A stretch of DNA of 64,000 bases from Candidatus Pacearchaeota archaeon (GCA_017609535.1 JAFCDU010000001.1:4782-68781); one strand, 5' to 3'; shown: positions 2,400 through 14,006, counted from the first letter of the stretch. A program made the numbers and translations. Notes: a model not told the origin generated them from the letters alone.

Positions 2400-3626
2400 T
2401 CACAACCCCAAACTTTCAATCATAATACTCTCAACTTTCCCATGTAAATTACTTGGAATTGACAGCTTAATCTCCCTCGTCCGCCCATGCCTGCCCTTAG
2501 AAATCACTTTAGCATTAATCAATCCAAGCATATCAATTTCAGCAATAATATCTGATACCCTCCTCTGAGTCAAAACCTCTGTCTTGATTCTATCGCACAG
2601 CTCCTGGTAATAATTATAAACATCACCTGTAAAAATCTTATCAAAATTCTTAGATTGCTTAATCTGTTTAGTCAGCTGAAAAATAGAATATAAAACAAGC
2701 TGAAACTGCTTCGGCTCTGTCTCAACAATATCTAAAATCTTGTCCCTCTCTATTTTTTCATTAGCCAAATCAATAAATCTCAGCTCAACATTCTTACTGC
2801 CCTCCCTTTCAGACAACTCTCCTGCAATTCTCATTAAATCCAATGCTCTTCGCGCATCACCATGCTCTCTTGCTGCATATGCTGCGCATTTCGCAATAAC
2901 CCCCTCATCCACCACCCCCTCTTTAAACGCTTTCTTGCACCTCTCCTGCAAAATATCCTGCAGCTGCAACGCATTGTAAGGTGGAAAAACAATCTCCTCC
3001 TCGCCAAGAGAACTTCTTACTCTCGGATCAACATTATCTAAGAAAGTTACATCATTTGAAATGCCAATCAAACTAATTTGTGCCTTGCTCAATTCTGAAT
3101 TCAATCTTGTCAAATTATAAATAAACCCGTCTGAAATTTTATTAACAGCATTATCAATCTCATCAAAAATTAAAACAACTAACTGATTTTTATTGTCAAT
3201 TAATTCAATAAATTTAGAATAAACATGGTCCGTAGGAAGCCCTGTTGCAGGAATGCTCCCTCCAAGCTCCTTAATCAAAGCAGCCAAAATCCGATATTCA
3301 GTATCTGCAATTTTCTTCAGTTTGCAATTAAGATACTCAATCCTAACATCCACCCCCATCTGATTCGCCTTTTTCAATAATTCATCCCGAACATACTGAA
3401 CAGATAATGTCTTTCCAGTCCCTGTCTTCCCATACAAAAACAAATTACTTGGCCTCTCTCCTCTTAAAATTGAAGCTAAAATTGAAGCAACCTGTTCAAT
3501 CTGCTTATCCCTATGTGGAATGCTTTCAGGAGTATGATTCGCCTGCAAAATACTCTTATCTCTAAATAAAGAATTCTCAACAGCAGATTCAAAAATATTG
3601 TCTAACTCAACAGCCATCTTCCTCAA
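2400..3626 (-). CDS. orc1: Orc1/Cdc6 replication initiator (AAA+ ATPase with C-terminal winged helix)
   Basis: Walker A YGKTGTGKT, Walker B LVVLIFDEID, 408 aa. A GGGGGTTGAGGAAG Shine-Dalgarno-like element precedes the ATG. Confidence 0.9.
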   Translation of the reverse strand: MRKMAVELDNIFESAVENSLFRDKSILQANHTPESIPHRDKQIEQVASILASILRGERPSNLFLYGKTGTGKTLSVQYVRDELLKKANQMGVDVRIEYLNCKLKKIADTEYRILAALIKELGGSIPATGLPTDHVYSKFIELIDNKNQLVVLIFDEIDNAVNKISDGFIYNLTRLNSELSKAQISLIGISNDVTFLDNVDPRVRSSLGEEEIVFPPYNALQLQDILQERCKKAFKEGVVDEGVIAKCAAYAAREHGDARRALDLMRIAGELSEREGSKNVELRFIDLANEKIERDKILDIVETEPKQFQLVLYSIFQLTKQIKQSKNFDKIFTGDVYNYYQELCDRIKTEVLTQRRVSDIIAEIDMLGLINAKVISKGRHGRTREIKLSIPSNLHGKVESIMIESLGL

Positions 3627-4049
3627 CCCCCTTTTAATCCTTCACAAAATACCCCCAATCTATTTAAACTTTCCTATACTTGAAAATATAAATTATCACC
3701 CCCATTTCAAATGGAGCAAAAAACTCAAAAAATCTAAAAAATCAATCTTAAATCGTCGAAAACATCAAAAAACCCCTACCCCCTTATTTCCTCTCCAAAT
3801 GAAATTAAAACAAACAAATTAACAACTAAAAGAATTCCATATAAATATAACATAACTATCAAACAAAAAAACAGCAATAATAAATCCCTAACTATTCAAC
3901 AAAAAACAAGTAATAATAAATCCATAATTGTATATAATTAATCTAACAAAACCTTCAACAAAAACTATAATAATCCATAATTCACATAAAACCCTTTTCA
4001 TATAATTTCACATAAAAAAATATTATAAAAAATAATTCTACAAAACTAA

Positions 4050-4125
4050 CTAAAACCAACTAAAACCATAAATCTAAAACCATAATCAATCAATAATAAC
4101 CATTTAACAAAACTATCTAAAACCA
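4050..4125. repeat. Four dispersed copies of CTAAAACCA(A/T)
   Basis: Copies at 4050, 4060, 4074 and 4117, read directly. Confidence 0.7.
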
Positions 4126-4199
4126 TATCTGATTTAACATATCCAAAAAACATAGAGAAATAGGCAGTATATAATAAAACAAAAAACATAGAGAAAAAG

Positions 4200-4237
4200 T
4201 TATAATTAATGGTTATAATTAATGGTTATAATTCAAT
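4200..4237. repeat. Tandem repeat TTATAATTAATGG, about 2.9 copies
   Basis: ttataattaatgg ttataattaatgg ttataattcaat, read directly. Confidence 0.8.
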
Positions 4238-4359
4238 ATATATAATAAAATATATAAAATCTTATAAATAAAAAATAAAAAACCCTCCAAACCTCCCTTT
4301 AAAAACATTTCCAAAAGAAATCATAGGGTGGGAGAACATATCTAATCATTTACAGAAAC

Positions 4360-4369
4360 ATTTATAAAA
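4360..4369 (+). promoter_or_regulatory. TATA-box-like element for the PRC-barrel gene
   Basis: catTTATAAAAac about 22-28 nt upstream of ATG 4390. Confidence 0.3.
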
Positions 4370-4389
4370 ACAATCAATTTAATTCTAAA

Positions 4390-4644
4390 ATGGAGAAACG
4401 CCCTCTAAAATTACTTTTAGGAAAACAAATAGTAACAAAAGAAGGTAAACGATTAGGTTCAATTAAGGACATAACCTTTGAAACAAAAACAGGAGAACTA
4501 ATTCATCTTGTTTTAAAGGACCTCACAACCTATACCTCAAACCTATCTTTAGAAAGAACAGCCGATAGGGAAGCTTTAGTCCCTTTCTCAGCAGTGATTG
4601 CTGTAGGGGATTTTGTTGTGGTTTCTGAAGAAGATTTAATATAA
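4390..4644 (+). CDS. PRC-barrel domain protein
   Basis: 84 aa with a GKxVxxxxGxxLGxIxD-like core typical of small archaeal PRC-barrel proteins. A TATA-like TTTATAAAA lies about 25 nt upstream, suggesting a leaderless transcript. Confidence 0.55.
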   Translation: MEKRPLKLLLGKQIVTKEGKRLGSIKDITFETKTGELIHLVLKDLTTYTSNLSLERTADREALVPFSAVIAVGDFVVVSEEDLI

Positions 4645-5953: not shown

Positions 5954-8553
5954 TTTCTTAACTCTGCATAAACCCTCCTAATAAACTCAATCTTATCTTC
6001 AATCTTAATAACATCAGCATAACCCTGCAGAATCAAATTAATTGCAAATGGACTAACAACGCGCGTGTTTTTTTTCACAATCTTAATTTTTCCAGATTCA
6101 ATCCATTCTAAAACTTTTTCTGCATTCTTAATATCCATCAAATCCTCTAAAACCTCTCGTCTAGCTTCTTTCAAAATTGGAAAATTCTTTGTTTTCTTCT
6201 TCACAGCCGCAAGAATAAAATGCGAGGACATCTCTTGTTTTCCAACTGACTTAATTCTCCCCTTATAGTTTCTTAAAATCATAAGGCCTCGAGCAGCACA
6301 ATGCCTAAACCTTCGTTTTAAAATCTCTGTCTTCTCAATTGCCTCATCCAAAATCTTCCGAATATTTTCCTTTCTCAATTTCTTAAATGCCTTTTCAACC
6401 TGATTCAAATCCCCTCCTGAAATATAAAATCCATTGTCAGTGATTCCAATCCCAACATCCCTGCCTCTGGCAGAAGCAACTAAATAGCCAACAGCCCGCG
6501 ATAAAGCGTCATTGACCCTCCTCCCAAACAAAGTATGAAACAGCAAGTAATTCTTTTCAGCCCGATATTCTTCAATTAAAATCTTATTCTCATTAGGAAT
6601 AATAGAAAATTCCTTCTGGTCTTTAAAATAATTATAAATTGTCTCAGCAGTCTTATTGTCGCAATACAAATAATCCTTAATAAATCGCAGAACATCTTTT
6701 TTCCCATCCTTCATTCGTTCATCCATATATTTTCTAAATTTCCCAATACTAACCGCAGTATCAAAACTCAATGGAAGCATTTCAGAAAACCATGAAGGAA
6801 TTGTCGGACTTTTAATCGAGCGCTTAACATAAACATTCATTCCTTTTGTATACATAAACTGATACCTGCTCCCTCCCAAAACAAAAACATCCCCCTTCTT
6901 CAGTTTTTCTAAAAACAATTCATCAATTTTCCCAACAATTTTCCCATTTTCAACAACATTAACATAACTTTCATCAGGAATAGTTCCAATATTAGTCATA
7001 TAAATAACTCTTGCTAATTTTCCTTTCTTCCCAATCTCCCTCCTTTCTTCATCATACCAAATCTTAGAATAAACATGGCTTTTTTCCAATTCATACTCTC
7101 CAGCAAGATACGAAACAACATTAAAAAAATCCTCTCTTGTCAAATTTCTATAGCAATAACTCCTTCTAATCAAAGAAAACATCTCATCAACATTCCATCT
7201 TTTATTAATAGCCATTCCATAAATATGCTGAGCCAAAACATCCAAACAATTTTCAGGAATGTGGATTTCATCAATTCTTTTCTCAATACTATTCTTCAAA
7301 ATTAAAGCACATTCAACCAAATCATCAACATCATAAACAACAAAACATCCTTTTGCAATTGCATGAAGCTTATGCCCTGCTCTTCCAATCCTTTGCATGG
7401 CTCTTGCTACGCCCTTTGGACTTCCTAATAAAATTACTAAATCAATAAAACCAATATCAATCCCCAATTCAAGAGAAGTAGAGCATACAACAGCCTTTAA
7501 TTTTCCATTCCTAAGCCGCTCTTCAATTGAAAACCTATGTTCTTTTGAAAGCGAAGAATGATGCGCCCCAATCAATGGCTCTGTTTCCCCGCTTTCAGAA
7601 TCAATATTCTCATACTTCCCAGGAAACTTTTCTTTTAAATTATGAACAACCCTCTCAGTCGCAGCCCGCGTATTAGTAAAAATTAATGTTGTTTTATGCT
7701 GTTCAATAAGTTCATCAATCAATCGATACAAATTGGAATCCAACTCAATAGGGTTAGTCTCTAAAAAATCCTTTACAGGAGTCGCAATACTTAAATTCAG
7801 CCTTTTTTCCAATTCAACAGACGCAATTTTGCAATCCCTATCCCCGACAAGATAATGAGCAACCCTCTCCAACGGTGCAATAGTAGCACTCAATCCAATT
7901 CTAGTAAACTCAATTTTTGACAGATTCTGCAATCTTTCTAAGGTCAAACTCAAATGAACCCCCCGCTTATTCTCAGCAAGCGAATGAATCTCATCAACAA
8001 TAACAAACTCCAGCAAAGAAAATTTTTCAGAAAACTTAGGAGAATTAATCATAATAGCCAAACTTTCAGGCGTTGTAACTAAAATATGAGGAACTTTTTT
8101 TAACATCTTTACTCGCTCCTTAGTTTCAGTGTCCCCTGTCCGCAGATTAACTTTAATCTCCTGCATTTCAATACCTTTTTCTTTAGCAAGTTTATTAATC
8201 TCCTCTAATGGACGAACAAGATTAACATATATATCATTGCTCAATGCTTTCAAAGGAGAACAATAAACAGCATAGACCCTATTATCTAACTCTTTTTTCT
8301 TAGCAATTGAAACAAGATAATTTAAAATACTTAAAAAGGCAGTCAGAGTTTTAGTCCCTCCTGTAGGAGCAGAAATCAATATATTTTTCCTATGAAATAC
8401 AGGCAATACACCATATAATTGAGTCCTGCTGAAATTCCTAAATCGCGAAAAAAACCACTCTCTAACTAAAGGGTCCAAACTATCAATAATCAACCTGCTG
8501 TCATATTCTTTAATGAACTCAAATCTCCCCATCTTATTTAGAATAATGAACAA
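5950..8553 (-). CDS. lhr: Lhr-type superfamily 2 ATP-dependent DNA helicase (DEAH/DEIH box)
   Basis: Motif I APTGGTKT, motif II VIVDEIHSL, motif III LSAT, HHSSLSKEHR, motif VI QRIGRAGH, and a long Lhr-like C-terminal domain. The true start may be the ATG at 8532 (MGRFEF). Confidence 0.8.
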   Translation of the reverse strand: MFIILNKMGRFEFIKEYDSRLIIDSLDPLVREWFFSRFRNFSRTQLYGVLPVFHRKNILISAPTGGTKTLTAFLSILNYLVSIAKKKELDNRVYAVYCSPLKALSNDIYVNLVRPLEEINKLAKEKGIEMQEIKVNLRTGDTETKERVKMLKKVPHILVTTPESLAIMINSPKFSEKFSLLEFVIVDEIHSLAENKRGVHLSLTLERLQNLSKIEFTRIGLSATIAPLERVAHYLVGDRDCKIASVELEKRLNLSIATPVKDFLETNPIELDSNLYRLIDELIEQHKTTLIFTNTRAATERVVHNLKEKFPGKYENIDSESGETEPLIGAHHSSLSKEHRFSIEERLRNGKLKAVVCSTSLELGIDIGFIDLVILLGSPKGVARAMQRIGRAGHKLHAIAKGCFVVYDVDDLVECALILKNSIEKRIDEIHIPENCLDVLAQHIYGMAINKRWNVDEMFSLIRRSYCYRNLTREDFFNVVSYLAGEYELEKSHVYSKIWYDEERREIGKKGKLARVIYMTNIGTIPDESYVNVVENGKIVGKIDELFLEKLKKGDVFVLGGSRYQFMYTKGMNVYVKRSIKSPTIPSWFSEMLPLSFDTAVSIGKFRKYMDERMKDGKKDVLRFIKDYLYCDNKTAETIYNYFKDQKEFSIIPNENKILIEEYRAEKNYLLFHTLFGRRVNDALSRAVGYLVASARGRDVGIGITDNGFYISGGDLNQVEKAFKKLRKENIRKILDEAIEKTEILKRRFRHCAARGLMILRNYKGRIKSVGKQEMSSHFILAAVKKKTKNFPILKEARREVLEDLMDIKNAEKVLEWIESGKIKIVKKNTRVVSPFAINLILQGYADVIKIEDKIEFIRRVYAELRK

Positions 8554-8612
8554 TTAAATAATCTAACTGCCCAATGTAATAAACTATAAAAACCGAATAA
8601 CTTTATAGATGT

Positions 8613-8897
8613 ATGCCAAAAATTAGCCAAGAAAAAAAACAAAAAATCCAAGAACAAATTTTATTTTATTTATATAATTCCTTCCCAACACCAAAGTTCA
8701 TATCAGATATTTCTAAAGAATTAGCAAGAGATGAGGAGTTTATAAAAATCCTAATAAATGAATTACTAAAAAAAGGGCTTGTTATAAAAATTGATAAAAA
8801 TCCAAAAGGCATAAAATACCTAAAAAGGCTTCGCTGGAGACTCTCAAATAAAGCCCATGAAGCATATTCAAAACAGCAAAGACTTAATCACAAATAA
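8613..8897 (+). CDS. Small winged-helix-like DNA-binding protein (hypothetical)
   Basis: 94 aa, basic, with a predicted HTH segment ISDISKELARDEEFIKILINELLKKGLV. Confidence 0.4.
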   Translation: MPKISQEKKQKIQEQILFYLYNSFPTPKFISDISKELARDEEFIKILINELLKKGLVIKIDKNPKGIKYLKRLRWRLSNKAHEAYSKQQRLNHK

Positions 8898-8927
8898 AAT
8901 TATAAACAATGACCCTCTTCTAAAAAA

Positions 8928-9545
8928 ATGGACCCAATTAAAGAAGCATTTCAAAAAGTCAAAGCTGAAATCTTAGATTTAAAGAAAGAAATTCAAGAAA
9001 TAAAACAAGAACTTCAACAGACAGACAATCCAACAGACAATCCAACACATATTCCAACACTTATCACTCTTTCAGAGCCTCTGAAACAGCCAAATTTGGC
9101 ATTTTCCACAAGAAACAGGGGGGTTCCAACAGACAATCCAACCAACAAACCAACACACCAACAGACAGACAAAAGCAATGAAAATCTATCATATCAAGCC
9201 AATTTTGATGATTTTGAACAAGCCCGCAAAATCTTAGATTCCTTAGATAACATAAAAAAGGAAATTCGCCTTAAATTTAAGCGCCTAACACCTAAGGAAA
9301 TGCTCGTTTTTTCCACAATTTATCAATTAGAAGAGAGAAATATAGAAGAGATTACCCATAAGATTTTGGCAAATATCCTTAATTTAAGTGAATCCTCTAT
9401 TAGAGAATATATAAATAAACTTACAAAAAAAGGGATCCCCATACTAAAAATACGCCAAAATAACAGGAAAATCCTCTTAAAAATCTCACAAGACCTCAAA
9501 AAAATTGCCAGTTTATCAACGATAATCCAATTAAGAGAACTATAA
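8928..9545 (+). CDS. Protein with N-terminal coiled coil, PTDNPT low-complexity repeats and C-terminal HTH (MarR/TrmB-like)
   Basis: 205 aa. Repeats TDNPTDNPTHIPT ... PTDNPTNKPT. C-terminal LTPKEMLVFSTIYQLEE...SESSIREYINKLTKKGI. Confidence 0.5.
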   Translation: MDPIKEAFQKVKAEILDLKKEIQEIKQELQQTDNPTDNPTHIPTLITLSEPLKQPNLAFSTRNRGVPTDNPTNKPTHQQTDKSNENLSYQANFDDFEQARKILDSLDNIKKEIRLKFKRLTPKEMLVFSTIYQLEERNIEEITHKILANILNLSESSIREYINKLTKKGIPILKIRQNNRKILLKISQDLKKIASLSTIIQLREL

Positions 9546-9641
9546 TGTCTGATTAATCGGTATACCGATTAAAAATATCCATCTTCTCTCCACTAAATTT
9601 CAATATCATCTCCTAATAAAACCTTCCTATGAAATCTAATG

Positions 9642-10250
9642 TTATTTCTCACCTTTCTTTGATTTTTTACCTGATTTAACTCTCACTTTTACACTTTTTA
9701 ACAAGATTTCCTTCTTGTTTTCAGGAATATACAACCTCTTTTTACCATTTTTTTCCCTTATCTCTCCTATCAAACCCTCACTTTTCTGTTTTATAGCATT
9801 TACTTGCCCTCTTATTGTGCTTTTATCCTTCCCTAAAAGAGCTGCCAAGTCCTCATAGCTTAGTTTTAACTCACTATTCAACAAAGCCCATACAATTGCC
9901 CTCTCCATTACTGTAAAATTAGATAAAATGGCTGTTTGGACACCCGTTTGGACAGGTGTTTGGACACCTTCAACACCTGTTTGTTTATCAACAGCTGTTT
10001 GTTGCTGTTTGGACAAAAACCATGGATTTTGGACAGAGACAATATTTCTTAATTCTTTCATCTCTTCTTGAAGTTGATAAATTAAATCTTTGAGAGATGA
10101 AATCTCATCTTCATAATTCTTATTTTTTCCGTCAATATGAGTAATCCATTGTCCTACTTTAACAAAATCCTCTCTTACTGCATCAAAAGATTTATGCATA
10201 TCATTCTTTAATTTTTCAATCTCCCTCTTTTTTCTAAGAAAACCAAACAT
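9642..10250 (-). CDS. Protein with N-terminal coiled coil, VQT repeats and C-terminal HTH
   Basis: 202 aa. QTGVEGVQTPVQTGVQT repeats are encoded by four copies of TGTCCAAACA. C-terminal winged-helix-like FTVMERAIVWALLNSELKLSYEDLAALLG. Confidence 0.5.
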   Translation of the reverse strand: MFGFLRKKREIEKLKNDMHKSFDAVREDFVKVGQWITHIDGKNKNYEDEISSLKDLIYQLQEEMKELRNIVSVQNPWFLSKQQQTAVDKQTGVEGVQTPVQTGVQTAILSNFTVMERAIVWALLNSELKLSYEDLAALLGKDKSTIRGQVNAIKQKSEGLIGEIREKNGKKRLYIPENKKEILLKSVKVRVKSGKKSKKGEK

Positions 10251-10331
10251 CTTAATAATTCCTGTTTGACGATATTTATAAATATTTCGTAAATATTTGC
10301 ATTAGGCAATGAAAAATTTTTATTTAAAATT

Positions 10332-10356
10332 TGTTCAAACACCTGTCCAAACACCC
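10332..10356 (+). repeat. Doublet of TGT(T/C)CAAACA motifs, intergenic copy 1
   Basis: tgttcaaacacctgtccaaacaccc. The same 10-mer occurs as a doublet at 12554-12575 and four times in reverse orientation inside the 9642-10250 CDS (9934-10015). Confidence 0.7.
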
Positions 10357-10388
10357 AACAATTAAATTTATCACGGCAAGTTCTTCTC

Positions 10389-10417
10389 TTTCACAAACCT
10401 AACCTAAGTGCATAAAA
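10389..10417 (+). repeat. 29-bp direct repeat, copy 1 (TTTCACAAACCTAACCTAAGTGCATAAAA)
   Basis: Identical to 11078-11106. Confidence 0.85.
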
Positions 10418-10495
10418 TCGCCGGAAGAAAAATAAAAATAAGGCCGCAAAAATGATAAACAGCAAATTTATAAACTTCAAACATCTTAAAATAAA

Positions 10496-10783
10496 ATGAG
10501 ATTTAATAAGCGGATTATATATTCCGGAGCAATCTCTTTAATTATTTTTTTCTTAGCAATGTCCATTAAAATAATCCCTTGCCAGACAGCTCCAAATGTT
10601 CCAAACCCCCAATATTCTTGGAAAATGTGCTCATTAAATCCCGACGCTGAGATAAAAACAGGAACTAAAAAACTATTCTTCGGTTTTAGTGAAAGCTTGT
10701 CAGAAACATATTTCATTGTCCTTTTAGTAACATTTATATTCTCAATGATACTATTACATTTTATAGGAAAAAGGAACATTTAA
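10496..10783 (+). CDS. Hypothetical small membrane protein (alternative: the overlapping minus-strand ORF 10486-10779)
   Basis: 95 aa with hydrophobic N- and C-terminal segments. A TATA-like aatttataaac lies about 25 nt upstream. It shares strand with the following genes. Overlapping ORFs exist on both strands, so the assignment is uncertain. Confidence 0.3.
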   Translation: MRFNKRIIYSGAISLIIFFLAMSIKIIPCQTAPNVPNPQYSWKMCSLNPDAEIKTGTKKLFFGFSESLSETYFIVLLVTFIFSMILLHFIGKRNI

Positions 10784-10819
10784 AAATATTAAAAACAAAT
10801 AAAATAAAGGAGGTGAAAA

Positions 10820-11014
10820 ATGAAAAAACAAGGAGCTGGTCCAGTGGGCATTGTTTTTTGGTTAGTTGGAATTATTGTTTCATTGGCAGTTGGCTTTGGC
10901 CTAATCAGTGGTAGTTTAGCTGTACCATACATAGGCCCAGTCAATCAAATAACTGGCTGGATTGTAGTGATTGGAACTGTTATCAATGTAATACTGGCCA
11001 TATTCAGTCAATAA
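10820..11014 (+). CDS. Small two-TM membrane protein (hypothetical)
   Basis: 64 aa. A strong AAGGAGGTGA RBS lies 6 nt upstream of the ATG. Glycine-rich TM helices. Confidence 0.55.
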   Translation: MKKQGAGPVGIVFWLVGIIVSLAVGFGLISGSLAVPYIGPVNQITGWIVVIGTVINVILAIFSQ

Positions 11015-11077
11015 ACTTACAATTTTCATTTTATTCTTTATTTTCTGATTTATTTCTTTTTCTTTTATTTAAACGAT

Positions 11078-11106
11078 TTTCACAAACCTAACCTAAGTGC
11101 ATAAAA
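11078..11106 (+). repeat. 29-bp direct repeat, copy 2
   Basis: Identical to 10389-10417. Confidence 0.85.
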
Positions 11107-11171
11107 AAATCCCCATAATAAAAAAATTAATCAAAAAATCCAAGAATTCTTCATAAAATACATAAAATTTA

Positions 11172-11227
11172 TATACTTAGGGCACCCTAAATAAACAGAT
11201 ACAACTAAATATAGATCCCTAAGTATA
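11172..11227 (+). promoter_or_regulatory. Inverted-repeat site upstream of the serine recombinase gene; candidate recombination or operator site
   Basis: TATACTTAGGG-CA-CCCTAAATA forms a palindrome with a 2-bp centre. A third half-site CCCTAAGTATA, an exact inverse of the first, lies 35 bp downstream and ends 5 nt before the ATG at 11232. Confidence 0.45.
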
Positions 11228-11231
11228 CAAA

Positions 11232-11990
11232 ATGACTTCATCAAAACCTCTCGCAGCAATTTATGTTAGGGTTTCAACACAAGAACAAGCCCAGCAAGGT
11301 TTTTCCCTCGCAGCACAACAAGAATCCTTGGAAAATTATGCAAAAGCCTTAGGTTATGAAATTTTTAAAATTTACAAGGATGAAGGAAAATCTGCAAAGG
11401 ACATAAAACACCGGCCAGCAATGGTCCAAATGCTTAAAGATGCAGAGAGCAAAAAATTTCAAGCAATATTTATTTACAAACTTGACAGATTTTCCAGAAG
11501 CTTAAAAGACCTTATCCTGACAATAGACAAACTAAAAGAATGGGGCATAGATTTTGTCTCTCTGCAGGATAAAATAGAAACTGCCTCTGCTTCAGGAAAA
11601 CTCATGTTTCACATAATCTCCGCATTCGCAGAATTTGAACGAAACATCATTGGTGACAGAACAAAATTCGGCATGGAGCGAAAAGCAAAAGAAGGAGGAT
11701 TTATAACAAAACCTCCAAAGGGCTACAGGCTAATAAACAAACAACTCGTGGTTGATGAAAAAGAAGCAGAAAGAGTCAAACAAATATTTGAACAATTTCT
11801 AAATACCAAGATATCCCTAACACAATTAGCAAAACAAAATAACATGACAACAGCAGGAGTTAAAAAGCTCCTCCAAAACACAACCTACATAGGAAAAGTT
11901 AAATTCGCAGGAAAAGAAAGCCAGGGAAATCATAAACCCATTATTTCTTTAGGACTATTCAACAAAGTTCAGAATAAATTAAATCTCTAA
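11232..11990 (+). CDS. Serine recombinase (resolvase/invertase catalytic domain plus recombinase domain)
   Basis: N-terminal catalytic motif AAIYVRVSTQEQ (nucleophile Ser), DGKSAKD, RxxxxLDRFSR. C-terminal recombinase-domain-like region ending NTTYIGKVKF...GNHKPIIS. Confidence 0.8.
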   Translation: MTSSKPLAAIYVRVSTQEQAQQGFSLAAQQESLENYAKALGYEIFKIYKDEGKSAKDIKHRPAMVQMLKDAESKKFQAIFIYKLDRFSRSLKDLILTIDKLKEWGIDFVSLQDKIETASASGKLMFHIISAFAEFERNIIGDRTKFGMERKAKEGGFITKPPKGYRLINKQLVVDEKEAERVKQIFEQFLNTKISLTQLAKQNNMTTAGVKKLLQNTTYIGKVKFAGKESQGNHKPIISLGLFNKVQNKLNL

Positions 11991-12521
11991 AACAGACAAT
12001 CCAACCCCCTTCTCTTTAGCCCAGCTAAGCAAAGCAAGCAACTCCTTCCCCCGCAATTCAATAAGAATTTCAGTATCCCCTTCATCACAGCGCTCAATTT
12101 CTTTATCACCCAAAGGAGGGGTCGCATAAAAATTATTAAATTTACAAGTATTATCGCAATATAAAATCCTATTTGTAACTCGCTCAACATCATCTTTTAA
12201 AATCTCAGGAATGTCATCAATTAGTTCAAGAGTTTCATTCAAACGTTCAGCAACCCCCCCTTCTTTAATTTTTTCTCTAATAAATTCTGGCAAATTTGTC
12301 AATTCTTCTTCATTATATTCCTTTAAAGTCAAATTTCCCTTAACATAATCCAAACAATAATCATTTGAATCGCATTTCACAAATAAATCCTCTTTCTCAT
12401 CCGTGACACAAACCCGCAAAACCTTAAAAACATAAAAATAATAAAAATAAACTCCAATAAACAAGATTAATAAAACTAAAATACCTACAATAATCAAAAA
12501 TATTTTCAAACCCCTGCCCAT
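11979..12521 (-). CDS. N-terminally anchored cysteine-containing protein (hypothetical)
   Basis: 180 aa with one N-terminal TM helix, then an acidic domain with 7 Cys. Confidence 0.4.
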   Translation of the reverse strand: MGRGLKIFLIIVGILVLLILFIGVYFYYFYVFKVLRVCVTDEKEDLFVKCDSNDYCLDYVKGNLTLKEYNEEELTNLPEFIREKIKEGGVAERLNETLELIDDIPEILKDDVERVTNRILYCDNTCKFNNFYATPPLGDKEIERCDEGDTEILIELRGKELLALLSWAKEKGVGLSVLEI

Positions 12522-12553
12522 TTAATTATTTAATAAGGCCTATTTATAAATGT

Positions 12554-12575
12554 TGTCCAAACACCTGTCCAAACA
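12554..12575 (+). repeat. Doublet of TGTCCAAACA motifs, intergenic copy 2
   Basis: tgtccaaacacctgtccaaacagcaa. Confidence 0.7.
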
Positions 12576-12595
12576 GCAAAATTTAAATCATCTCG

Positions 12596-13129
12596 TTGTT
12601 TAAACAACCTATGGTCTGTGAAAAATGTGGTTATGCAGAAGAAAAAGAAGCTGAAAAATTCTCTAAAAAACTATGTAAAATCTGTTTTCACTTTGCACCA
12701 GATGATAAACAACTGTTCAAACAATATATAAAAGAAAAAATTGATTGGAGAATTTTAGATACTTTTAGAAAATATCCAAAAGAAAATCCTCTTAAATTAG
12801 GGATGCAAAAAAAAGCAAAACATGGACAGCCAATGACCCGCCCTCCACTCGGCTATTCTCTCAAAGATGGAACGCTCAAACCAAATCAGGATGCATCAAA
12901 AGTCCATTCTCTTTTTAGGGTTTTTCTTGAAAAAAACTATTCCTTAAATTCTCTGGCAAAAAATTACGGGTTATCAGTAAATGGTATAAAAAAAATTCTC
13001 ACAAATCGCACTTATCTTGGAGAAATCAAATTCGCAGGCTCCCTGCATAAAGGGAATCATCATCCCTTAATCTCACCAGAAATCTTTTACGCAGTCCAAA
13101 GAAAATTGCGAACAATCTGTTCAAAATAA
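12596..13129 (+). CDS. Zinc-ribbon plus recombinase-domain protein lacking the catalytic domain (paralog of the C-terminal half of the 11232 recombinase)
   Basis: N-terminal CEKCG...CKIC. C-terminal TRPPLGYSL...TNRTYLGEIKFAGSLHKGNHHPLIS aligns with KPPKGYRL...NTTYIGKVKFAGKESQGNHKPIIS of the neighbouring recombinase. Confidence 0.55.
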   Translation: MFKQPMVCEKCGYAEEKEAEKFSKKLCKICFHFAPDDKQLFKQYIKEKIDWRILDTFRKYPKENPLKLGMQKKAKHGQPMTRPPLGYSLKDGTLKPNQDASKVHSLFRVFLEKNYSLNSLAKNYGLSVNGIKKILTNRTYLGEIKFAGSLHKGNHHPLISPEIFYAVQRKLRTICSK

Positions 13130-13160
13130 ATATAAAATAACCATAAATTACAAAAATCAC

Positions 13161-13901
13161 TTACTTTTTTGCTCTACTCAAACTATTCTGAATTTTTGAA
13201 AGATTAACTGGCCCAACTTTGTCAGGATCTGCCCCAACATATGTTGCAATATCCTTTAAAAAATCAATATATTTCATAGTTACATCAAATTTTTGAACTT
13301 CTGGAAGGTAATCCATTCGTCCTTGTGTATTTTTTCCAGCAGGTTTAAGTCTCACGTAATTTAAAAGAACATTATCTATGGTTGGCATATACTCAAAATT
13401 AATAAGATGAACATGCCCCTTATTTGCTAATCTATTAAGTGTATTGTTTCTATGGTGCCCTTTTTCTGCAAATCCAATAATCTTATAACTAAGGTGCTTG
13501 GCTAATTGCCTCCTATAATCTTCAAAAGTCCCCCCAGTTCTTTCTGATTTTTTCAAAGCCCTTTGTTCAAGAGATTTTCTAAATTGCCTATAACCCTTTA
13601 CAGCAGAAGCACCAGAAAGAACCTCATCTAAACAAATTATTTTCAGCTCTTCATCAGTTTCATACTCTTCAAAAAAATTATCATACCATCTGGACATTAA
13701 CTCATCTCTTTTTCTAAACCTGCTTGAATTTGGCGGGTATTCTACAATTTCTAATGGAAACTTTCTATCAACTATTTTTAAAATATCAATAAAAGGCACA
13801 GCCCCAACTACTGGAGCAAATACAACATCAGGTTTTTCCATATGTATAATGTCTGAAGCCTTCTTAAAACCCTTAACAAGATTCTCTATACTCCCTTTCA
13901 T
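13161..13901 (-). CDS. Phosphoribosyltransferase (PRTase)-fold protein of unknown function
   Basis: 246 aa. PRPP-binding-like motif KIICLDEVLSGASA, preceded by VVFAPVVGAVPF. Confidence 0.4.
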   Translation of the reverse strand: MKGSIENLVKGFKKASDIIHMEKPDVVFAPVVGAVPFIDILKIVDRKFPLEIVEYPPNSSRFRKRDELMSRWYDNFFEEYETDEELKIICLDEVLSGASAVKGYRQFRKSLEQRALKKSERTGGTFEDYRRQLAKHLSYKIIGFAEKGHHRNNTLNRLANKGHVHLINFEYMPTIDNVLLNYVRLKPAGKNTQGRMDYLPEVQKFDVTMKYIDFLKDIATYVGADPDKVGPVNLSKIQNSLSRAKK

Positions 13902-14006
13902 AATAAATCAACAAAAAATAACTATATAAATCTTTCCTTACTAAAAAGTAACAACATTGAAGCAATTTTAATAGAATTGAATATAACTGCCGAAATAAAA
14001 CTAAAA

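Follow-up and report, generated by a model that had tools for sequence, protein, structure and literature searches.

The DNA described here is a stretch of 64,000 nucleotides (nt) from a Candidatus Pacearchaeota archaeon (GCA_017609535.1, JAFCDU010000001.1:4782-68781), called the window in what follows, and the element in question is a 10-mer, TGTCCAAACA, which is part of a broader family, TGTTTRRAC, with copies often 10-13 bp apart. These copies are best explained, with a probability that we put at about 0.6, as an operator array of TF202, a putative regulator of 202 amino acids (aa). Through it TF202 would regulate its own gene and control neighbouring genes, and the array would extend from the upstream region into the coding DNA of TF202 itself. 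That TF202 is the protein bound is what the sequence evidence suggests. The features of the locus are collected in Table 1.

Motif arrays in and upstream of the TF202 gene

Exact copies of TGTCCAAACA occur six times in the window (minus strand at 9933, 9957 and 10006; plus strand at 10344, 12554 and 12566), where 0.20 would be expected, and none of 100 shuffled sequences reached six. Two one-mismatch copies, TGTCCAAACG at 9945 (minus) and TGTTCAAACA at 10332 (plus), fill in arrays with a 12-bp period, and the six other one-mismatch singletons in the window are about at chance level. As a 22-mer doublet, TGTCCAAACACCTGTCCAAACA, the motif is exact at 12554-12575 and carries one mismatch at 10332-10353 and at 9945-9966 (minus); four matches were counted for it in all, with none expected by chance. 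The flanks of the two intergenic doublets are also alike, forming a direct repeat with 85% identity over 34 nt (10325-10358 and 12547-12580). The looser pattern STGTTTRRAC has seven matches in 64 kb, against 0.6 expected, and these are confined to the same seven places, so the motif is not common in the window. An earlier note on this DNA had raised the question of whether the motif was simply as common as AT-rich sequence would make it, and for the window these counts speak against that. The same note had placed the copies, coding and intergenic alike, correctly to within one base; its coding run of 9934-10015 starts at 9933 instead. The in-frame translation of this run is PWFLSKQQQTAVDKQTGVEGVQTPVQTGVQTAI. 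Four copies in the run had been taken to encode V-Q-T, which holds for three of them (9933-9966); the fourth (10006-10015) is read in another frame, as L-S-K-Q.

The coding copies were compared across 81 TF202 genes, which are related sequences of 47-72% aa identity, and kinship was ignored in the statistics. Sense-strand copies with at most one mismatch were found in 73 of the 81 genes, with 2-6 copies per gene. For Gln, all 243 codons of the three VQT repeats are CAA (81 of 81 at each repeat), against a background of 78%; Thr is ACA in 89-99% (background 61%), GTC, a rare codon otherwise, encodes Val in 54-62% (7-13% elsewhere), and the codon before VQT ends in T in about 90%. In the degenerate copies, likewise, the family uses AAA for K89 in 100% and ACA for T91 in 94% of cases. 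The equally conserved recognition-helix residues 139-151 show background codon entropy, so the silent-site effect is not general to conserved residues or to relatedness. Moreover, the 10-mer is read in two frames, as xVQT in 207 copies and as (L/V)SKQ in 47 copies, with 42 of the 81 genes carrying both, and the Ser of LSKQ is TCC in 29 of 30 cases compared with 5% elsewhere in the TF202 genes. One clade has a reverse-orientation doublet at the start codon, aTGTTTGGatTATTTGGACA, from which the N-terminus MFGLFGH is translated, and in a divergent clade (L056, L066, L073 and L050) the prevailing upstream variant AAACAGGTGTTTAAA is also present in the linker-coding DNA, where it is read as RQVFK or KQLFK. 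Given the silent-site bias, the two frames and the predicted disorder of the linker (see below), the linker peptide appears to be conserved because the DNA is conserved. The earlier note had supposed that the motif was captured into coding sequence, but coding copies that are family-wide, under silent-site selection and in two frames are not the mark of a recent capture.

For the regions outside the gene, 80 loci of about 20 kb each were fetched from different species-level genomes of DPANN archaea (Woese-/Pacearchaeota-type) and the window proteins were compared with them by tblastn. The exact 10-mer is present within -400 to -1 of TF202 homologues at 64 sites, spread over 31 of 79 loci, whereas 10 of 2360 control windows contain it, which is an enrichment of about 90-fold, and if one mismatch is allowed upstream copies are found in about 45 of 81 loci. 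The 7-mers GGTGTTT, GTGTTTA and TGTTTAA are enriched 40-75 times upstream of TF202 and are present in 56-71 of the 80 loci. The upstream regions of relatives are full of degenerate copies, for example GGTGTTTAAAC and GCTGTTTGG, and palindromic variants AAACAssTGTTT are common; the spacing of the STGTTT core peaks at 10, 12-13, 19-23 and 30-34 nt. Relative to the coding copies, 84 upstream copies are in the opposite orientation and 23 in the same one, a bias of 79%. In one clade the sites are fixed at -277, -217, -52 (abutting the transcription factor B recognition element, BRE, and TATA box) and +10 relative to TF202. The comparison of homologues that the earlier note had proposed for the two intergenic doublets came out differently for each. 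The doublet at 10332 is kept at the same place in a relative of 72% identity (L081), in keeping with the arrays found in most loci. A doublet of the 12554 type was not found in the equivalent spacer upstream of ZnRec177 in 31 other loci and is present in a same-species contig (L083), and it is therefore taken as a lineage-specific addition.

The positions of the arrays relative to the predicted promoters are those expected of operators. A putative TF202 core promoter, cgaaa(c/t)aTTTATAAA, is recognisable at the same place in the window and its relatives, with a box cgaaacaTTTATAAAg in the relatives, and in relatives a box caaa.aTTTATAAActtc lies about 25 nt ahead of mem95. Because the putative TATA box lies 25-32 nt ahead of the ATG, the TF202 transcript would be of a leaderless type, and as TF202 and mem95 both look leaderless and have divergent core promoters, the arrays are predicted to lie in an untranscribed spacer. 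Both doublets of the window lie between divergent predicted TATA boxes (TF202/mem95 and p180/ZnRec177). The true start of ZnRec177 is likely to be the ATG at 12611 (MVCEKCGY), judged by its homologues, which begin with MVCEK or MTCKK and have their TATA box at the same distance as in the window. The promoter of the adjoining wHTH94-HTH205 operon is nearly free of the motif, which was found there in 4 of 61 loci (0.38 vs 7.55 STGTTT per 300 nt). This operon has, directly downstream of its TATA box, a conserved box of its own, AAACCGAATAAC, at 8588-8601 (plus) in the window and in many loci, which is probably a separate operator.

TF202 and the proposed regulation

The 1955 homologues of TF202 all come from DPANN-type archaea (annotated as Nanoarchaeota, Woesearchaeota or Pacearchaeota). 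TF202 has no Pfam match above the gathering score, its match to the NCBIfam model Sta1 (16.9 bits) is below the cut-off of 80, and a profile search of the PDB returned coiled-coil matches only, which are regarded as noise. In an AlphaFold model built from 25 homologues, a helix at residues 3-72 is followed by a segment at 73-105 with a predicted local distance difference test score (pLDDT) of 29-42 and by a winged helix-turn-helix (wHTH) at 114-184, the latter composed of helices 114-125, 132-139 and 143-156 and strands 162-165 and 171-174 (pLDDT 87-93). The top Foldseek matches of the winged helix in the PDB were PerR, MepR, AbfR2 (Lrs14-type), MarR, SlyA and ST1889, and superposition on PerR, MepR, MarR, AbfR2 and ST1889 gave a probability of 1.0 and a root-mean-square deviation of 2-4 A over 70-90 residues. 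The modelled fold is thus that of a MarR/Lrs14-like winged helix, in a protein that scores below the thresholds of the sequence families. The linker at 73-105 is predicted to be disordered, and this low-confidence segment is exactly the LSKQ...KQT...VQTPVQTAVQT stretch, one of the most strongly conserved regions in the alignment of the proteins. In the literature that was searchable, no description was found of the motif in archaea, nor of the TF202 family among DPANN regulators. The unnamed core wHTH regulator listed in a 2026 preprint on Nanobdellota could be encoded by one of these genes or be a different one. The window and L083 differ in structure only by a 42-nt indel (window 9614-9656 vs L083 3668-3671) at the 3' end of TF202, with a product of 199 aa instead of 202 aa.

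The evidence for an operator over the promoter of TF202 is positional, i.e., the sites at -52, abutting the putative BRE/TATA, and +10 in one clade and those at -82 to -103 in the window. TF202 could form oligomers through its long N-terminal helix and occupy the helically phased sites between the divergent promoters, so covering the BRE/TATA-proximal DNA of both. It would also occupy the start-codon sites in some clades and the reverse-oriented array 230-330 bp inside its own gene. These intragenic sites would probably cooperate with the upstream array, either as a roadblock or through a loop around the promoter. In this way TF202 would control its own expression and co-regulate mem95-mem64 and, in the species of the window, also p180 and ZnRec177. 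A binding site for a helix-turn-helix (HTH) protein with autoregulation had already been suggested in the earlier note; the arrays that crowd the upstream region in most of the 80 genomes and the doublets between the TATA boxes add to this suggestion, and TF202 is now proposed as the binder.

Several points weigh against this interpretation. The 79% orientation bias of the upstream copies is not predicted by a simple symmetric operator model, and the arrays, with as many as about 10 copies in 300 bp, are denser than a simple autoregulatory operator requires. The 12554 doublet is not conserved outside the species, and the archaeal promoter elements were identified by eye from the sequence. The choice of TF202 as the binder comes from the logic of autoregulation and from the absence of the motif from the neighbouring operon promoter, and because neither the recognition helix nor the motif core varies, there is no strict covariation between protein and DNA. 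The codon tests ignore phylogeny, although the control positions behave neutrally. Finally, some codons outside the linker are also biased across the family, namely L109 (TTA 95%), I153 (ATA 97%), S157 (AGT 96%) and V189 (GTG 79%), which lie at about 9924, 9792, 9780 and 9684 of the window and are without an obvious motif.

A parallel case is found in the convergent neighbour. HTH205 has the architecture of TF202, i.e., a coiled coil, a Q/T-rich linker and a wHTH. Its invariant STGNxGVPT is encoded by ATTTCCACAGGAAAT-AAA-GGGGTTCCAACA, and the family consensus TTTCCACAGGAAAT-AAA-GGGGT encodes STGNxGV. The silent sites of this box are fixed, with Ser as TCC in 64 of 64 (background 16%), the first Gly as GGA in 62 of 64 and the second as GGG in 64 of 64. 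The box matches the euryarchaeal consensus of the origin recognition box (ORB), GTTCCAGTGGAAAC-AAA----GGGGG (PMC1868953); the copy inside HTH205 in the window, at 9103-9125 (plus), is the variant TTCCACAAGAAAC-A-GGGGGG. The reading of the TF202 repeats as DNA sites is strengthened by the fact that protein-binding DNA in linker-coding sequence occurs twice in the cluster. In several loci (L056, L062, L071) the AT-rich DNA that immediately precedes orc1/cdc6 has 1-3 copies of the 12-mer of the HTH205 box, TTCCA[CT]AGGAAA, around it, which is the canonical origin arrangement. In the window the spacer at 3627-4390 has an ORB-like box TTTCCAAAAGAAAT..AGGGTGGG at 4308-4332 (plus) and a weaker inverted one at 3773-3799 (minus), and this cdc6-adjacent spacer is the probable chromosomal replication origin, about 5-6 kb from the motif arrays. 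Enrichment of the ORB-like 12-mer in the window was not significant, the ORBs there being divergent variants. TGTCCAAACA itself has no match to the ORB dyad or G-string and is absent from the cdc6-adjacent oriC spacer of the window.

Other repeats of the HTH205 linker were also observed. The 14-mer ACAGACAATCCAAC encodes its TDNPT repeats in three copies (9021-9046 and 9129-9142, plus) and is found once more, exactly, at 11992-12005 (plus), just past the stop of the recombinase gene and within the C-terminal codons of the convergent p180, giving 4 matches in the window vs 0.42 expected. It was rejected as a second motif of the coding and intergenic kind, since its apparent intergenic matches elsewhere are mem64 coding sequence (GWIVV). 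An unbiased 11-mer self-match test was no better than the control (331 vs 588). In most relatives (e.g., L021, L049, L061) the linker repeat DRQT is a pure (GACA)n, and its Gln is CAG in 72% compared with 19% elsewhere; this may reflect a further element acting at the DNA level or a tract prone to slippage.

Taken further, and only tentatively, the linkers of this origin-proximal pair of coiled-coil/winged-helix genes could both be translated cis-elements, an operator array in two frames in TF202 and an ORB in HTH205. The gene bodies would then be part of a nucleoprotein complex near oriC that couples occupancy by the initiator, occupancy by the regulator and expression of the regulator, and the conservation of the linker peptides would be a by-product.

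The genomes of DPANN archaea are tiny and encode few recognisable regulators, and a genetic system is lacking; for these organisms the results offer a testable cis-element, a candidate cognate regulator that is conserved among the sampled relatives, and probable targets. They also provide what may be a natural example of DNA with two roles, in which the conservation of amino acids in a linker is driven by the binding site and not by the function of the protein. Conservation in such linkers should therefore not be taken as constraint at the protein level, and recoding or codon optimisation of such genes could destroy their regulation. The ORB inside HTH205 suggests a link of replication-origin proteins to the expression of origin-proximal regulators.

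Genomic neighbourhood and other explanations

The gene order RpoD-L18e-L13-S9, ZnRec177, (p180), mem64-mem95 (divergent), TF202, HTH205 (convergent), wHTH94, (Lhr) is conserved. TF202 is present in 80 of the 80 loci, HTH205 in 77, wHTH94 in 65, ZnRec177 in 52, mem95 in 45 and mem64 in 32; the 52 loci with ZnRec177 have it beside the ribosomal S9 operon. Patchiness among the fetched loci is confined to the catalytic recombinase and p180. Forty-nine loci are long enough to show what lies past TF202, and each of them has orc1/cdc6 at a distance of 2.7-10 kb from that gene. A mobile element or recombinase cassette was rejected on the grounds of this synteny across 80 loci and of the proximity to cdc6. 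The genes had been regarded in the earlier note as those of an element, but the neighbourhood in the fetched loci is conserved, origin-proximal chromosomal synteny.

Table 1. Features of the TF202 locus and its surroundings in the window (1-based positions)
Feature	Position	Strand	Remarks
orc1/cdc6	2400-3626	-	followed by spacer 3627-4390, about 25% GC
wHTH94	8613-8897		one operon with HTH205
HTH205 (coiled coil, Q/T-rich linker, wHTH)	8928-9545	+	convergent with TF202
TF202	9642-10250	-	202-aa regulator with predicted long N-terminal helix, disordered Q/T-rich linker and C-terminal winged helix; from open reading frame list, homologues and AlphaFold
Three tandem 12-bp units (TGTCCAAACA ss)	9933-9966	-	encode GVQTPVQTGVQT in TF202 linker
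Degenerate copies, CTGTTTGTT on plus strand, 18-nt spacing	9970-10003	-	encode conserved KQT / QQQT; direct repeat
Exact 10-mer in other frame (tTG TCC AAA CAg = L-S-K-Q)	10006-10015	-	TF202 linker
Predicted TF202 core promoter cgaaatatTTTATAAA	10275-10289	-	TATA 25-32 nt ahead of ATG; read by eye
Intergenic doublet TGTTCAAACAccTGTCCAAACA	10332-10353	+	82-103 nt upstream of TF202 ATG, between predicted TF202 and mem95 core promoters
Predicted TATA box of divergent membrane-protein operon	10467-10474	+	22-29 nt ahead of mem95 ATG; by eye
mem95	10496-10783	+	membrane-protein operon with mem64, divergent from TF202
mem64	10820-11014	+	membrane-protein operon with mem95
Resolvase-domain gene, 252 aa (catalytic serine recombinase)	11232-11990	+	Pfam
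p180 (180-aa membrane-anchored protein)	11979-12521	-	
Predicted TATA box of p180	12543-12550	-	22-29 nt ahead of ATG at 12521; putative, by eye
Exact doublet TGTCCAAACAccTGTCCAAACA	12554-12575	+	fills 31-nt gap between two divergent predicted TATA boxes, at BRE positions of both
Predicted TATA-like box TTTAAAT of ZnRec177	12582-12588	+	23-29 nt ahead of ATG at 12611; by eye
ZnRec177 (Zn-ribbon and 'Recombinase' DNA-binding domain, without catalytic resolvase domain)	12611-13129	+	Pfam PF07508 only

The explanation that survives best beside regulation by TF202, although an unlikely one, is that the motif is bound by another protein (Orc1/Cdc6, HTH205, wHTH94 or ZnRec177) or has a structural role near the origin, as a partition or centromere-like, iteron-like or nucleoid-organising site, with TF202 as the organiser or as a mere host gene. 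The constant proximity to orc1/cdc6, the ORB embedded in the neighbouring HTH205 and the position of the second doublet directly upstream of ZnRec177 would all fit, and the dense, helically phased arrays are like those of parC or iterons. The parS site within spo0J would be a precedent for such sites inside a gene. The lambda O iterons within the O gene would be another (PMC7466680). However, the motif is missing from the oriC spacer of the window, the cluster has no partition ATPase gene, the promoter of ZnRec177 is motif-free in the 31 other loci and the promoter of the wHTH94-HTH205 operon carries a distinct box of its own. The sites lie exactly between the predicted TATA boxes, as operators would.

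It is very improbable that the motif acts at the RNA level, with upstream copies in a long 5' untranslated region or a small RNA pairing with the TF202 mRNA at its UGUCCAAACA repeats and controlling its translation or stability. Several perfect complementarities of 10 nt are possible, given that 79% of the upstream copies are oriented so as to be complementary to the coding copies, but the remaining 21% are in the other orientation and the palindromic variants are common. Moreover, the arrays lie between divergent core promoters whose TATA boxes are placed 22-32 nt from the ATG, with a spacer predicted to be untranscribed, the 12554 doublet is without a complementary partner nearby in a transcript, and no Rfam family matches the region from 8000 to 14000.

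Slightly less credible still is a role of the copies as serine-recombinase sites, either to invert DNA, as in a phase switch or an inverton within the gene, or to mark the ends of a recombinase cassette. The possibility is raised by 21-nt inverted arms at 9946-9966 and 10332-10352 (95% complementary) and at 9946-9966 and 12554-12574 (100%), and by the Resolvase-domain gene, which has an intergenic doublet on either side. If the first pair inverted, the frame would stay open through VQTPVQT and meet a stop three codons later; the fusions that hypothetical inversions would yield have this 3-codon tail or an out-of-frame read into ZnRec177. The arrays, inverted between coding and upstream DNA, are present in most loci, but a catalytic recombinase close to that of the window (65-78% identity) was detected in only about 11 of 80, with more distant copies in a few others, and in the same genomes the close counterparts are more conserved than TF202 (48-50%). 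A flipped arrangement was looked for across the 81 TF202 loci of the fetched assemblies and none was seen; all 81 open reading frames are intact, and the same-species contig L083 (99.2% identical) is collinear with the window over the whole region. An inversion switch was rejected on this evidence. Multiple helically phased 10-mers are also unlike the crossover site of a serine recombinase, and the conserved gene order is core synteny and not that of a cassette. The doublets had been described in the earlier note as possible recombination boundaries that bracket the recombinase module; this is not supported, in view of the wide distribution of the arrays, the intact and collinear loci and the lineage-specific nature of the 12554 doublet. 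The 252-aa Resolvase-domain protein itself was seen to be without the zinc-ribbon/coiled-coil part of large serine recombinases.

Least probable of all is selection on the protein alone for a Q/T-rich repeat linker, with codon preference or repeat homogenisation and coincidental intergenic copies, since, although the VQT repeats are conserved family-wide and gene conversion or slippage can homogenise tandem repeats, preference for the rare codons GTC and TCC is confined to the motif, the 10-mer encodes unrelated peptides in two frames, the same codons recur across genomes of just 47-72% identity where homogenisation within a genome cannot explain them, the exact 10-mer is about 90-fold enriched upstream and the linker is predicted to be disordered.

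Other repeats were noticed around the recombinase and membrane-protein genes. A 29-nt direct repeat, TTTCACAAACCTAACCTAAGTGCATAAAA, flanks mem95/mem64 at 10389-10417 and 11078-11106 (plus). Relatives have a conserved element of a related kind, TTCAC-TAAG-YTAACC-WWAGTGCACAAC, in many cases with ..GGAGACAGAATTTA after it; it lies downstream of mem64 in most loci and at about -330 from TF202 in L043, L047, L049 and L075. The 29-nt element has no match in Rfam and could represent a small RNA not yet recognised or a site for a protein or recombinase. A perfect 11-bp inverted repeat, TATACTTAGGG / CCCTAAGTATA, is found at 11172-11182 and 11217-11227, just upstream of the recombinase ATG (11232), and shares with the 29-nt element a CTTAGG core. 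An element with this core (the 10389/11078 repeat and the inverted repeat) is a better candidate than the 10-mer for a recombinase site, the inverted repeat also for a regulatory one. Just downstream of mem64, a perfect palindrome, TGTCCAAACAaTGTTTGGACA, was observed in L020 (194-214), L029 (1602-1622), L044 (8753-8773) and also in L041 and L042, with unrelated hairpins at the same place in L012 and L024; the palindrome could act as a hairpin resembling a terminator or be a far boundary site of the array motif.

Comparison with known systems

Serine-invertase switches, such as those of Hin and Gin, and the invertons that reportedly occur within genes resemble the window in that inverted repeats, one in the coding sequence and one upstream, are found near a serine recombinase gene. 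They differ in that the recombinase here is not co-conserved with the repeats, that no inverted form occurs in the 81 loci and that the repeats are multi-copy 10-mers. In plasmid R1, two sets of 11-bp helically phased repeats in parC flank the par promoter and are bound cooperatively by the small autoregulator ParR. However, ParR is a ribbon-helix-helix protein that works with the actin-like ParM, whereas the TF202 cluster is without such a partner gene and has one of its arrays inside a gene.

In Bacillus subtilis, parS is a single 16-bp palindrome inside spo0J, the gene of the ParB protein Spo0J, with other copies scattered around oriC; the site in spo0J is said to have been described already in the 1990s. 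The likeness is that an origin-proximal DNA-binding protein would have its cognate site in its own coding sequence. ParB, on the other hand, is a CTPase clamp acting with ParA, whereas the TF202 cluster has no partition ATPase, its protein is predicted to be a MarR-like wHTH and its arrays lie in promoter spacers. Regulators of the MarR, Lrs14 (AbfR) and Sta1 types are similar to TF202 in that the modelled winged helix superposes on theirs, that there are weak matches to the Sta1 profile and that the sites overlap or abut the regulator's own promoter. The differences are that TF202 falls below the Pfam and NCBIfam cut-offs, that its multi-copy operator array would run into coding sequence, and that its dimerisation would use the 70-residue N-terminal helix and a 30-residue disordered linker instead of the MarR helical interface.

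In the O gene of lambdoid phages, the iterons of the origin lie inside the gene, between the parts that encode the domains, and the number of sites alters the length of the protein (PMC7466680). The lambda iterons are 19 bp long and are followed by an AT-rich unwinding region, together forming the origin, and O is the initiator. In contrast, the TF202 units are 10-12 bp long, most copies lie outside the gene between promoters, and the canonical origin, with ORBs and a DNA unwinding element, is 5-6 kb away by cdc6. No distinct AT-rich block follows the TF202 coding array, where the GC content is 0.31-0.34 over 9-11 kb compared with 0.25 at the origin at 4-5 kb. What is common to both is the presence of repeated sites inside the gene of a DNA-binding protein, in TF202 as 4-6 copies in the DNA that encodes the linker between coiled coil and wHTH, where TF202 is presumed to bind. 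For sites located in the linker-coding DNA of their own putative binder, lambdoid O would therefore appear to be the closest analogy.

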